From Chiloscyllium plagiosum (lineage: Eukaryota): a stretch of DNA of 53,815 nt. Position 1 is the first letter of the stretch, and each line of letters starts with the position of its first letter. The stretch covers positions 4,595,026-4,648,840 of the forward strand of contig NC_057748.1 in NCBI RefSeq assembly GCF_004010195.1, given 5' to 3'. A model generated the notes under the pieces. The model was not told where the DNA came from, ran no database searches, and saw only the letters and a list, made by a program, of their open reading frames with translations. Of this stretch, positions 4,855-47,470 are shown in pieces. A program made the position numbers and the translations under genes.

Positions 4855-5035
4855 TTTCACTATTCCTATTCACTATCACCTAGACAACTCCAAAACTGAA
4901 CCTCACTCCCTCAAGCTCTTGTATTTATCCTCCTGGGACACCCTGCACTCAAACAGGGAGAGATAGCACCAATGATGATTGACAATCCCTGACAGCCAAT
5001 CAGGAATCACCCATGAACATAGGCCCCCAATGAGA
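4855..5035 (-). promoter_or_regulatory. Ferritin copy 1 core promoter and short 5'UTR
   Basis: Minus-strand GGATAAATAC TATA-like box (4930-4921) with Inr-like TCAGTT downstream. CCAAT boxes on + at 4969, 4996 (AGCCAATCAG, NF-Y consensus) and 5027. The module is conserved before all seven exon-1 copies. Confidence 0.75.
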
Positions 5036-5399
5036 GAGAGGGGGTGGGTGTGTGAACCAGAACTGACCAGAGGTGTAGATTAGAGTCAGGTCTGGATGAT
5101 TATTCTGTGATTGGAACAGCAGGAGGTCACTCAGCAGCATCTCAATCAGGTCACTGTGAGTTTGTGTCCTTTTGAAAGAAATAGGTTTGGATTAGGAAAG
5201 GTTTCCAAGTTTTCTTTTAAAATAAACTTTGTTGTAACCAACTGCAAGAGGGGCTCAATGAAGGAGAGGAGTCAGTTTCTCAGCCTGTTGTGTTGGAAAT
5301 GGGAGAGAAAGGTGGGAAATTGGCGCTGGGACAAGGCAACTGTAACAGGAGCAGATGGGGCAGAGACTGGAAAATGTTCCCAATGGCGAAGAGTTCAGA

Positions 5400-5680
5400 A
5401 TACAGGGTGGAGTCACAGTGTAGTGACACAGGATAGACTGTTCAGAACTGAGAAGAGGAGAAAGGTCTTCACCCAGAGAGTGGGGAGTCTGTGGAATTCT
5501 CTGCCACAGAAAGTGGTTGAGGCCAAAATATTGAATGTTTTCAAGAAGGAGTTAGATATAGTTCTTAGGGCTATCGGGATCAAAGTGCAAGGGGAGGGTG
5601 TGGAAAGATGGAATTGAGCTAGATGATCAGCTACAATCATATGGAATGGCCGACTCCCATTCCTTTTTTTCTCCAATTCT
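5400..5680 (+). mobile_element. CR1/L2 LINE 3'-end fragment
   Basis: Translates RRKVFTQRVGSLWNSLPQKVVEA...FKKELD, the CR1-type ORF2 C-terminus. A paralogous copy lies at about 13280-13555. Confidence 0.8.
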
Positions 5681-5939
5681 ATGTTTCAATAACCTGGGTA
5701 GTAAGGGTCTTGTGGCACAGAGGTAGTGTCCCTTTGTCTGGGCCAGGTGGTCTAGGTACAAGACCGTACCTGCTCCAGAGGTGTCTGATAACATCTCTGG
5801 ACAGGTTCATAAGGAAACAACCAGAGCTGATGCAGGCCCAATAGACCGAATGGCCTCCTCCTGTGCCATAACAATTCTGTGATTCTGTGGATGATCTGCA
5901 TCTGAACAGTGTTTCCCTGCCTCTATCTCCTGACTGACC

Positions 5940-42865: not shown

Positions 42866-44962
42866 GCAGTGAAAAACAAGTAGCCTCCCATAATTTGGAC
42901 CACAGAAACAGGAAGAGGCCATTCAACCCCTCAAGTCTATTTCACCATTCAATTCGATCTTGGTTGGTTTGTATTTTAACTCTGTGTAACCAATCTTTCT
43001 TCCAAATCCCGTTACTCCCTTACTTAACAAATGGTCACCAATGTCAGTTTGAAGTGTTCAATTAAGATTTTGAGAGAGTGATGTCCAGATTCATGGTATT
43101 CTGTGTGTGAAGAAGGAAATGAAACCCCTGTGCTCTACTCCTTCACTAATGTCATTTCTAAACATGACTGTCAGGCCCTTGTACAGATCCTGGGAAAGAT
43201 TGATATAGTTTTGCTATTTGAAGAGATAGCCATTAGTTCTCCTCTATCTCCTACACCTTGACCAATTCCAAACCATTTCTGAAGGTTTCCTCCAATCCCA
43301 CATGCTTCACTTTCTTAGAATGAAGTTATGGACTCTTGTCTGCAATGGCATTTAGTTGCTGTGACTTTCCCCAAGTTGAGACTAATAGAATTCTCTAAAT
43401 CAGAGTTTCCCAATATATCTCAAGAAATTCAATCCTGGAGACAATGTGGAGTACAATTGCATTAGTGTTCTCCCATCTCTAGATAAACTGATACATCTCT
43501 CATCAGATCCAGAAGAGGTCAGTGCAAATGTTGAGATTATTTTGAAAGGTATTTGAAGACAAGATTTAACACTTGAAAGTTGGAGAGTCTCAGGATGTAA
43601 CCTGACTCTTTCTGCATTTATTCATCCTGGCCCTTGGAGAGAACAGGTGCAGGTAATAGTGCTCCACATTTGGTAACTCTTGTGAGGGACATCTTAACGT
43701 GATCAATGCTTGGCCACATAAACAGGTCAAAACAAAACCTCATCATTTTGTGAGCAGACGAAAGAACAGGAGACAGTCAGCCATTTGACCACTGCAACTG
43801 GCTTCACCGTGCGACAAGACCACATCTAATGTGGTTACAACTACGATAGTATTTGTAAATTACCGAGAGGGAGAAAAAGGTAGAGATCTCAAGTGGGGCC
43901 ATGAGTTAAAATTGAGGGAATTGCAAGTTCCAAGGCAGCAATGGAATTGGTGGTGTAACAGCTGTATCCCTGCTCTGAGACAATTTAAACCTCAAAACAA
44001 AGGTGATGACAGGGAAGAGCTTGGGAAGCATTGGAGGGAGGAAATAACTGGAGGATTTCCATCCAGCACCTACATTCAACTCCTGCACAAGAGTATGTCA
44101 GCCCACCAAGCACATGGAGAACTGCATTTTCAATAATCCAGTAGAATTGTGGAATGATTGTTAAGTTTCTGGTTCCTGTGAACTCAAAACACTGACCTCA
44201 GCCCACCTACTTCTGTTGACCTTTCACCTCTGCTATGAAGAGTCTACCTCAATCATTTGACACTTTCAATTCCTCAAGCGGCAAAAAAAAAAAAGAGTTT
44301 GATGAGGATAGCATAGAGGGATCATTACATTCAATCTAACCCTGTTCTGGGAGAGGCTGATAGGGATAGAACTAAGTGTTTTCTTACCAAGAAAAAAAAA
44401 GCAAAGCACAAGTGACTTTCACTTCAATAAAGGCAACTCCACTTTTATCCAGCATTATGCTGGACCTGTCCTGGGAATGTTTGGTAGAAAGTGTCCCAGC
44501 AGCTTTTTCTTAGCAGGAGTAGAGGGAGCTCCATCCTCTATCTAACCCCATACTTAGCTCAGTGACATGTTTCATAACATTGTATGTTAACCCAAGCCGA
44601 TTTAGACCATGATCCTAAAAACATCCCATTGCAATATAAAAAACACACTTTGATGCTGCAAAATTTGAGATCAACAAATGCAGAATTGGTAATTTTTCCT
44701 TAAACCCCCCCCTGCTTGAGTTTAGTTCAGAACAGCCACTAACACAATCACAGGAAACAGTGTTAGGTCAGGAAGGCCAAAAGCTGTTAAAGATTCCATG
44801 AATGCAATTTATACAGCTAGCAATCCTGGATCTGGATCCATTGCCAGGTACTGAACTACACAGCCATAAGTGTTTCAGATATTTATTTCCATATCCAGCA
44901 AGACAAAGCAGAACAGTTTACACTTCAACTTTGTGTTCAGTAGTAGGTGTTCCAAGTCCCAC

Positions 44963-47256
44963 TCAGCTCAGGGTGAGCCTGTCAAACAGGTACTCTCCCA
45001 GGCCATTCTCAGGGGCTCCCAGTCTCTTCAGGTTGGTGAGGTCATCTCCCAGCTTCTTGATCATCTTCACTTGCTCATCCAAGTAGTGTCTCTCCAGGAA
45101 GTCACACAGCTGGAAGGAGGAGGGAGAGAGAGTGTATTTATTTCAGACAGACTTGATTGAATTAGTTTTAATTTTAGTTCCTGCTGGTTATGGGTACAAC
45201 AGCTGGCTATCTACAAGAACAGGCTAAAACTGCCTCCTTAGCTATGCTAAAGGCAGAGCAAACTAAACTTGCAAGTGTCAAGCTAATTCTAACTAGGAAT
45301 AAATCCCATAGTTATTTACAACACAAACTCAAAATACCAACATGAATCAGATGATTGTTAACAGTTAACAAATGGCATTTACTCCAAAACAAGTCTACAC
45401 AGCCCTCGACCAACATGGACTGCAGGGCAGATTCCAATATCGCTTTCAACACCACTGAAAATTCATCCATCAAGAACTCACATGAGGGTCAGTGTGGCCA
45501 GAGGAGAGTTTGTGCAGATCCAGCAGACTCTGGTTCACATCCTTCTCCATCTGTAGAGCTCTCTGCATTGCCTCCAGACCATTGCCCCACTCATCCTGCT
45601 CTGGCTTCTGGAGCAAGAGAAGAGAAGGCAGATGCTTCACTCAATGTGAAAAGGGAACCGAAGTGCAATGGAAATAAGTGAAAGGTAGTGAGTGTGCCAT
45701 GTAGCATTACGCCAAAGGAATTTATGCTTCAAACATGTTAGTACTGTTTGTGGTGATGTAGGATGATAGACCAACCTTGACATCCTGCAAGAGGACGCGG
45801 CCTCCACGTTTATTCTGGAATTCCATCAGTTTCTCAGCATGTTCCTGTTCCTCATGGGACTGCTCCTTGAAGAACTCAGCAAAGTGACGCAGGGCAACAT
45901 CATCCCGGTCAAAGTAAGAGGACTGAGGTGGGGGGGGGGAAGAGAACAGAAGAGGGTAGAGTCAGGGAAGCTCCAGATCTCACCCATTGAGAACCTCACT
46001 AAGACCCGTGTGGTTTGTTTTCAGCTTAAAAAAAAAGAATGAAGTATATAAATGGTACAGATGAGATAGGAACATATTGAGGAAGGTAGAGTGTTCAGAA
46101 CTAGAGATCTGAGTTTAGGAACATAAAAGGTGGTCTTTTTCAAGAGACTAAAATGAGAAGCTTAGATTGAGATGCAAAATTAGAAGGTGGGAGTTTGTCA
46201 TTGACTATTTAAAAAAAAAGGAAGATTATTCAGCAGAGTTACTGGTTATCCAGAGAAAACTTATAGAATACAAACCAAGTGAACATGTCTTATTAAAGTC
46301 AGTCATATTTTCAGGGGCCATGACCTTGTCATCAATTCACATAAGCAAAGGAGATCATTTATCCTTATAAAATAAAAAAAGGTCTCCAACTGTGAGCCCT
46401 ATTTTGATATGGGGAAAATGGGCAAGCCCTCAGCACCGAGTGCACTAGGAATGGGAACTAACCTGTTGCAGCTTGTACCCATCACCTCAATAGCCATTCC
46501 TTCCTCAGAGGGAAAAGTAAAATCCCAACCCCCATTTCAGGAAGCCCTGATTTAACAGGGAGCCTAAAATCAGGATACTCAACCCAAGTCACAAATCATT
46601 AGAGACTCTTTCACCAAAACAGTCGGTCGGTCAGTCAAAGAGAAAGATCTTGTCACATTGAAGTAATAATGCAAGATATTGTCATGGAAGCCAGTATGAA
46701 GACCAACACAAGAGGATTTTATTCCTTTAGAAACAGAAAGAGGGCTCAAATAGTTAGTATTTGACTAATTAATCACCCAATTGATTGGAGTCAAAAGTTG
46801 AATAAAAAAAAAGAAAAGTGATTAGGTTTACACATCATGAAAAGCCATCATCCAAGAGGCTGGAGTGAACCTTGGATTTAATTCCAATATAAAAACTTCA
46901 GAATAAAACCACATTTAGAATATAGACCAGTCAATTAACAAGGCAACCAAAAACACTTAGCATTAATCACTTGAGTGGATAAATGATTAGTAGAGGGAAA
47001 AGGATATTCAAAAGTCAAACACTTTTAATTGAAAGAAGTTCTACCAATCCAAAATTAAATTTTTAAAAAATTGATTACTGCCATATTGCCCATTCCCAGT
47101 TGCTTGTGGCAGGGTGGGGAAGAAAGAATGGACCACCAAGCCCACAAGCCTCACCATGGAGAGGTAAAAATAGGAAGAATAGAGCTCCAGGTTGATCTGC
47201 TTATTAACAGCATCCTCACAATCCTTGTGGTAGTTCTGACACACTTGGGAGGCCAT
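44963..47256 (-). CDS. Ferritin subunit, copy 9, intact, 173 aa, C-terminus LTLS
   Basis: Exons 47256-47155 (SSYFYLSM), 45922-45776, 45607-45482, 45109-44963 (GDDLTNL). GT-AG introns. AATAAA at about 44887-44882. Confidence 0.95.
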
Positions 47257-47470
47257 CTTCACTACTCCTGCTCACTATCACCTAGACAACTTTAAAACTG
47301 AGCCTTTCTCCGATTAGCTCATGTATTTATCCTCCTGGGACACCCTGCACTCAACCAGGGAGTGGCAGCACCAATGATGATTGACAATCCCTGACACAAT
47401 CAGGAATCCCAATGATCCAGGGACCAATGAAGGGCATAGGGAGGAGTGAGATACCCAGAGCCAATCAGAG
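47257..47470 (-). promoter_or_regulatory. Ferritin copy 9 promoter module
   Basis: GGATAAATAC box and multiple CCAAT boxes; the central one is degenerate (acaatcag). Confidence 0.7.

Follow-up and report, generated by a model that had tools for sequence, protein, structure and literature searches.

The stretch of DNA analysed here, positions 4595026-4648840 of NC_057748.1 (contig C39) of Chiloscyllium plagiosum, hereafter called the window (53,815 nucleotides, nt), carries a tandem array of ferritin genes on its minus strand, made up of seven copies with an exon 1, three orphan exon sets and repeats. Vertebrate cytosolic ferritin mRNAs normally bear a 5' iron-responsive element (IRE) and are repressed by the iron-regulatory proteins IRP1/2. 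We found no IRE in the predicted leaders of this array. The original prediction spoke of seven promoter-bearing copies lacking the element; all seven do bear an exon 1 and a promoter (start codons at window positions 4854, 12763, 19470, 25521, 34172, 42654 and 47256), and six of them are intact, with four exons, GT-AG introns and products of 173-176 amino acids (aa). The copy starting at 12763 is a pseudogene, with ATA in place of the start codon and a stop at codon 4. The features are as follows, in window coordinates.

2576-4854, minus strand: copy 1 coding region, four exons, intact, 173 aa
4855-4897, minus strand: copy 1 predicted leader, 43 nt, no IRE
4922-4929, minus strand: copy 1 TATA-like box GATAAATA, initiator A 32 nt downstream
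4969-5031, minus strand: copy 1 upstream module, three inverted CCAAT boxes (4969-4973, 4996-5000, 5027-5031)
4976-4984, minus strand: copy 1 Pbx:Prep DECA-like site, inside the upstream module
10461-12763, minus strand: copy 2 coding region, pseudogene (ATA start, codon-4 stop)
12764-12960, minus strand: copy 2 leader (30 nt) and promoter, no IRE
16933-19470, minus strand: copy 3 coding region, intact
19471-19667, minus strand: copy 3 leader (30 nt) and promoter, no IRE
22723-25521, minus strand: copy 4 coding region, intact
25522-25731, minus strand: copy 4 leader (43 nt) and promoter, no IRE, without DECA-like site
26671-27380, minus strand: orphan exons 2-4, without exon 1 or promoter of their own
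28379-28522, minus strand: orphan exon 4
31535-34172, minus strand: copy 5 coding region, 176 aa, intact; one contig of run X1 crosses its exon 1-2 splice
34173-34382, minus strand: copy 5 leader (43 nt) and promoter, no IRE
38581-42654, minus strand: copy 6 coding region, intact, 176 aa
42655-42864, minus strand: copy 6 leader (43 nt) and promoter, no IRE, without an exact DECA-like site
44963-47256, minus strand: copy 7 coding region, intact
47257-47466, minus strand: copy 7 leader (43 nt) and promoter, no IRE
52975-53714, minus strand: exons 3-4 of a further copy, whose exons 1 and 2 were not found past the window edge, up to the next copy

These genes belong to a larger family. Cluster A comprises 26 exon-1 copies at 4.53-4.75 Mb and one at 5.15 Mb, 20 of the 27 being intact by our filter; cluster B comprises 16 copies at 10.59-10.75 Mb (L043-L060), 12 of them intact, and further copies lie on unplaced contigs.

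The start of transcription was predicted from motifs. A GATAAAT box stands at -75 (five copies) or -62 (two copies) relative to the start codon, and in all seven an initiator-type A lies exactly 32 nt downstream of it, which gives leaders of 43 nt (five copies) or 30 nt (two copies) with no upstream ATG. These values bear out the TATA-like box and the leader of about 30-50 nt announced by the original prediction; its TCAGTT initiator is exact in five copies and reads TCACTT and TTAGTT in the remaining two. The sequence common to the 27 cluster-A copies ends at about -210, as the copy-pair coverage, in 100-nt bins counted upstream, falls from 0.88 to 0.69 and 0.21 and is at most 0.14 beyond 300 nt; therefore, the copies have no common upstream exon. 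Only 11 of the 27 retain the sole candidate splice acceptor of the leader.

An intronless retrocopy (L040, on contig C20) bears on the same point. It aligns with the array from -45 through the spliced coding sequence (92.8%), possesses an A-tail and is flanked by imperfect direct repeats of about 17 nt, and its 5' end falls at -41 to -45, compared with the predicted -43. Judged by its sequence, L040 is the record of an array mRNA with an unspliced leader, and since this leader begins at the predicted start it argues against a hidden upstream exon. Among the 13 processed or dispersed copies compared, L040 alone has the array leader reaching the initiator, the other array-type processed copies being 5'-truncated or degenerate. 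Processed copies of all three ferritin types occur in the genome (L040, L041, L042, L061, L062, L063, L064 and L068), apparently implying germ-line transcripts of cluster A, cluster B and the IRE-bearing gene described below; L040, L042 and L061 share a similar repeat context. In contigs from four of four public sequencing runs, taken to be RNA, array-type exon 1 is joined to exon 2. Two such contigs, from other organisms, extend 41 and 57 nt upstream of the ATG, with no CAGTG in the 30 nt visible, and the contig of run X1 covers 12 nt of leader as well as the junction of exons 1 and 2.

The IRE itself, a hairpin in which a CAGUGN apical loop tops a 5-bp stem with a C bulge, was sought in several ways. 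First, the CAGTG loop is absent from the seven leaders of the window, and the Rfam IRE model (RF00037) has no match in the whole window (cmscan, E<=5), in keeping with the claim that these copies lack the element. That search returned three matches only, to unrelated microRNA families, all on one near-perfect palindrome within a repeat (window 6952-7067), which is the source of these spurious sub-cut-off matches. Second, the same model detects the genome's two ferritin IREs, which score 42 and 43.7 bits and exceed the cut-off, so that the negative result in the window is not due to poor sensitivity. They belong to an FTH1-type gene on contig C16 and to a separate ferritin gene at C39:4852197, 203 kb from the window; the genome-wide RF00037 search scored 82 candidates, so at least two IREs is the proper count, and a genome pattern search turned up nothing more than a fragment similar to the leader of FTH1. 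Third, over 4.515-4.899 Mb of C39 (384 kb, of which 28.4 kb are N, including 500 nt at window 50948-51447; 25 stretches, each scanned singly, at the gathering threshold only), Rfam found a single IRE, on the separate ferritin gene outside the array. Fourth, a script scan for 14 loop variants gave no match in the 27 cluster-A leaders, and it found no IRE in the leaders of the 16 cluster-B genes either. Fifth, a strict hairpin scan of the 5 kb upstream (3.1 kb for one copy) was negative for all 27 cluster-A copies, positive for both controls and gave one weak match among the 16 cluster-B genes. The Rfam search of leaders and upstream kilobases, which had been suggested along with the original prediction, thus found no IRE near any of the 27 copies. 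We infer that the array mRNAs are uncoupled from IRP control.

The leader may retain a trace of a former element. Its TAGTG aligns in register with the loop of the neighbouring IRE gene, and the TAGTGA motif forms part of an internal 13-nt duplication. The segment following the TATA box aligns to the IRE gene with a score that beats 399 shuffles and 398 genomic segments out of 400 each, and the score of the TATA-initiator spacer is reached by 5 of 600 shuffles and 1 of 600 genomic segments. For the leader alone against the hairpin of the IRE gene, 5 of 600 shuffles attain the score, as do 50 of 600 genomic segments, and an eroded, vestigial IRE is for that reason unproven. Folding energy does not separate the leaders (-5.8 to -9.9 kcal/mol) from the IREs (-5.7 and -8.0 kcal/mol).

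The promoters of the array differ from those of the two IRE genes. CCAAT boxes occur in 27/27 cluster-A promoters, typically at -101, -71 and -44 from the TATA box, and in 16/16 cluster-B promoters, and none lies within 400 nt in the two IRE genes. In cluster B, CCAAT is repeated and 15 of 16 promoters carry an E-box. A DECA-like site (9/10 match to the Pbx:Prep DECA motif) sits between the CCAAT boxes, 11-16 nt from them, in 18 of the 27 copies and in five of the seven of the window; it occurs once in 128 kb of flanking DNA, with the proviso that the motif was chosen after inspection and that the copies share ancestry. The array promoters have 0-8 CpG per 400 nt, versus 13 and 43 in the IRE genes, and CpG-poor promoters point to tissue-restricted rather than housekeeping genes. 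The proposal of an NF-Y-type promoter is upheld, as far as sequence can tell, by the universal CCAAT boxes, by conservation limited to about 210 nt and by a retrocopy that begins at the predicted start. In 13 of 27 promoters, the TATA box is closely preceded by a metal-response-element core (window 4938-4951 and equivalents); as a control element it was discarded, being one ancestral 7-mer among 11 motifs tried and not beyond chance.

The predicted proteins resemble catalytic ferritin subunits. The ferroxidase ligands E27, Y34, E61, E62, H65, E107 and Q141 (human H-chain numbering) are present in all six intact window copies and in 19 of the 20 intact cluster-A copies. The exon lengths are 102, 147 and 126 nt plus the last exon, the domain is PF00210, the best solved relatives are M subunits, and the proteins align ungapped to M chains with no N-terminal extension. 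From these sequences, the array is taken to encode catalytic M-type subunits with an intact iron-oxidising site. The intact cluster-B copies (12/12) have lysine at 62 and glutamate at 141, in the same numbering. Within cluster A, synonymous divergence is 0.055 and the ratio of nonsynonymous to synonymous differences (pN/pS) is 0.36; promoter and exons are conserved, whereas the starts of introns are about 60% alike. Near-identical exons with divergent introns would suggest exon-limited gene conversion or unusually strong constraint. In other organisms, array-type exon 1 shows 1-2 differences per 90-102 nt, yet the leaders look unrelated.

The closest named proteins are Chiloscyllium ferritins (95-99% identity), and relatives 85-99% identical are named in many shark genera, where the subfamily is multicopy. 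In a quick tree of 72 rows (55 of 120 listed matches, chosen so as to avoid fused, partial and redundant models, 4 trimmed invertebrate outgroups and 13 genes from this genome, with no L chain), cluster A groups with shark, ray and one chimaera protein (support 92), and A and B are joined (88), separate from FTH1 (97) and from the shark and ray orthologues of the neighbouring IRE gene (96). The IRE gene of contig C16 falls in the FTH1 clade (97), and the array is, in this quick tree, not an FTH1 orthologue. The split of A and B from FTH1 and from the IRE gene is likely old, with the reservation that the two key supports are below 95. Glycogen synthase, the neighbour expected of FTL, has no match on C39, in a search that gives a lower bound only.

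Other observations concern the surroundings. Three divergent single ferritin genes, at C39:4830064, 4835805 and 4884125 (L029, L034), stand beside the IRE gene with no IRE detected; that at 4835805 lacks an ATG at the usual place and is preceded by an open, GC-rich stretch, rich in proline and arginine, that may form an N-terminal targeting extension. The array switches strand at a head-to-head pair (C39:4679081-4681239), and inversions also occur within cluster B. Window 1-1380 is purine-rich and, by eye, resembles a broken retroviral env region with stops and frameshifts; its two open reading frames have no Pfam match. At window 8221-8460, about 115 nt of intergenic DNA are directly duplicated.

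From these data we propose that the array encodes an IRE-less M-type ferritin, whose output is set by transcription and gene dosage, and which, by a judgement only somewhat better than even, serves as the iron store of the ovary or egg. NF-Y, perhaps together with Pbx:Prep, would drive tissue-restricted transcription from the initiator. As IRP1/2 could not bind the resulting mRNA, it would be translated even when labile iron is low, and about 20 intact copies would multiply the output. Growing oocytes might thus make ferritin shells ahead of the incoming iron, and an oocyte banking iron for the embryo would benefit from ferritin made before labile iron rises. Meanwhile, FTH1 and the neighbouring IRE gene would go on responding to iron in the usual way in the body. 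A single loss of the IRE is likely, at an early stage of the cartilaginous fishes and before the genes were amplified. The tissue assignment is in line with a report that the largest Greenland shark ferritin cluster is ovary-specific (part of bioRxiv 10.1101/2024.09.09.611499), and with the ferritin reported in fish, amphibian and snail eggs (excerpts of PMC1488847). In the zebrafish blastula, DECA sites adjoining NF-Y boxes are bound by maternal factors (sections of PMC6023610). Tandem oocyte zp3 genes may offer a parallel in their CCAAT boxes, which a literature search did not bear out. Of the roles offered originally, a tissue-specific one therefore fits best, given also the CpG-poor TATA promoters, and a constitutive one fits poorly.

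Several points weigh against this proposal. First, the start site is predicted from motifs and one old retrocopy, and no pile-up of 5' ends was seen in run X21 (34 reads) or in the run contigs, assembled contigs being unable to define start sites. Second, a relaxed hairpin scan of the whole window gave three weak matches, one of them on the sense strand at 20284; this hairpin has one mismatch and two G-U pairs, lies about 810 nt upstream of copy 3, beyond its predicted transcript, and was left unscored by the Rfam search of the window. Third, the leaders of other species, on which a single early loss would depend, are parts of those of two contigs. Fourth, no signal peptide is predicted in the array proteins, unlike snail yolk ferritin. 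Fifth, the ovary evidence consists of one preprint sentence about another shark, whose cluster is likened to ours by description. Sixth, NF-Y and TALE factors are ubiquitous, so that their motifs do not specify the oocyte, and DECA/NF-Y elements may not suffice as enhancers (both from passages of PMC6023610). Seventh, the shark ovary is enclosed in the lymphomyeloid epigonal organ, which ovary samples include (PMC5568229, in part), so shark "ovary" RNA may be leukocyte RNA.

This last point also feeds the leading alternative, in which the IRE-less ferritin is a product of epigonal leukocytes or of inflammation and withholds iron when the IRPs would repress ferritin. Some copies of the shark gene named FTH1b are expressed in Greenland shark blood and also in fin, which sits uneasily with an ovarian role (passages of PMC13214024), and fish ferritins respond to infection (passages of PMC4117605). 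Immune and antioxidant motifs are, however, scarce: between -230 and -60 of the 27 promoters we counted ISRE 0, C/EBP 0, ARE 0, GAS 1 and NF-kB 4. We consider the immune role, likewise among those originally offered, unlikely.

A broad constitutive ferritin, buffering iron against lipid peroxidation and ferroptosis in the lipid-rich tissues of sharks, appears rather improbable. An anti-ferroptosis role has been proposed for FTH1b (as stated in parts of PMC13214024), and spliced array-type contigs in all four public runs would suit it. The promoters, CpG-poor and with a TATA box, speak against it. So do the reads of run X21 (tissue not given, about 2% read), since 27 of 34 are less than 90% alike to the array (five are 95-99% alike), and run X22, where no reads match the array; this is weak evidence, as filters can drop reads. 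The loose ends of X21 (10 and 15 reads) match the last exon of the IRE gene.

It seems very unlikely that the IRE was lost incidentally, by drift in a birth-and-death array whose copies are for the most part redundant and serve no role of their own: the 7 of 27 copies failing the intactness filter, the orphan exons and a pN/pS that is not very low would agree with such drift, but the conservation of promoter and exons relative to introns and the multicopy state of the subfamily across many shark genera would not. Hidden iron control, whether through a farther start, a non-coding exon upstream or a leader site that binds IRP in a non-canonical way, draws on the inferred status of the start site, the N tracts of the 384 kb and the in-register TAGTG, and it is scarcely credible in view of the absence of any IRE near any copy, the empty scan for loop variants, the unspliced L040 leader running to the initiator and the lack of a shared block beyond about 210 nt.

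Returning to the proposed egg ferritin, a bolder version of it is tentative and, in our opinion, rather doubtful: two ferritin regimes may have existed before the shark/chimaera split, one of single somatic genes under IRE control, the other of an amplified branch without IREs, which an NF-Y/TALE promoter would drive and which would make a heteropolymer of catalytic and non-catalytic (A/B) subunits as the iron store of the giant egg. If so, the "longevity" expansion of the Greenland shark would be a reproductive trait outside iron feedback, and not an anti-ferroptosis device.

What is already known is the shark ferritin expansion, and the existence of IRE-less ferritins in snails and as mammalian FTMT. 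What is new here is the catalytically intact IRE-less subfamily, the start-site evidence and the promoter contrast; our literature searches, whose coverage of subscription journals is poor, found no statement of IRE loss in shark ferritins. As judged from the DNA, an IRE-less regulatory variant of the published expansion is real and its function probable. IRP control is what one expects of vertebrate cytosolic ferritin genes that contain introns. Unregulated L-ferritin is a cause of human disease. Dozens of IRE-less, catalytically intact copies beside two single IRE-keeping genes would change how the expansion is read: copy number would give iron-independent bulk synthesis in some tissue, and the faster iron-responsive buffering proposed for longevity would not follow.

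The array fits the shark FTH1b expansion, a tandem multicopy clade across sharks, the Greenland shark cluster being matched by description. The latter has 59 FTH1b copies, with more copies in sharks generally (sections of PMC13214024). In the passages of that paper on "FTH1b" and of bioRxiv 10.1101/2024.09.09.611499 on "FTL/FTH1" clusters, the published genes are likewise tandem, mostly full-length and on one small chromosome, with some copies 5'-truncated to exons 3-4, as in the window; these passages describe neither the promoters nor the contrast with an IRE-bearing neighbour. The term "IRE" is absent from the main text of both, and the supplements of PMC13214024 hold only "IRES".

Compared with vertebrate H, M and L ferritin genes (RF00037), the array has the same four exons and PF00210 domain, and a TATA-initiator spacing like that of the genome's two IRE genes, but it is multicopy, lacks the IRE, has a CCAAT-rich, CpG-poor promoter and a predicted leader of 30-43 nt, whereas the neighbouring IRE gene has one of about 133 nt. 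In salmon, each of the five isoforms, H and M, retains the IRE (passages of PMC4117605). FTMT, which lies outside IRE/IRP regulation, and FTHL17, a six-gene family (Fthl17) in the mouse, are, as described in parts of PMC7760355, also vertebrate ferritins whose expression is restricted and in part germ-line; FTMT lacks introns and is mitochondrial, and FTHL17 has no ferroxidase activity, whereas the shark genes have introns, predicted cytosolic products and catalytic ligands. The zebrafish blastula elements combining DECA and NF-Y (PMC6023610, in part) resemble the putative DECA-like sites near CCAAT in the array.

A further parallel is the snail yolk ferritin of Biomphalaria and Lymnaea, which has no IRE, stands beside an IRE-type somatic ferritin and is tied to egg provisioning (passages of PMC10799875); it has a signal peptide and a 42-residue insertion, and the shark proteins (173-176 aa) have neither. 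The snail and shark ferritins do not appear to be orthologous, and each would have lost its IRE independently. Schistosoma ferritins are reportedly, to go by a reference title, of the IRE-less type as well. Together, these likenesses would make the shark array a vertebrate parallel to the yolk ferritins of invertebrates.

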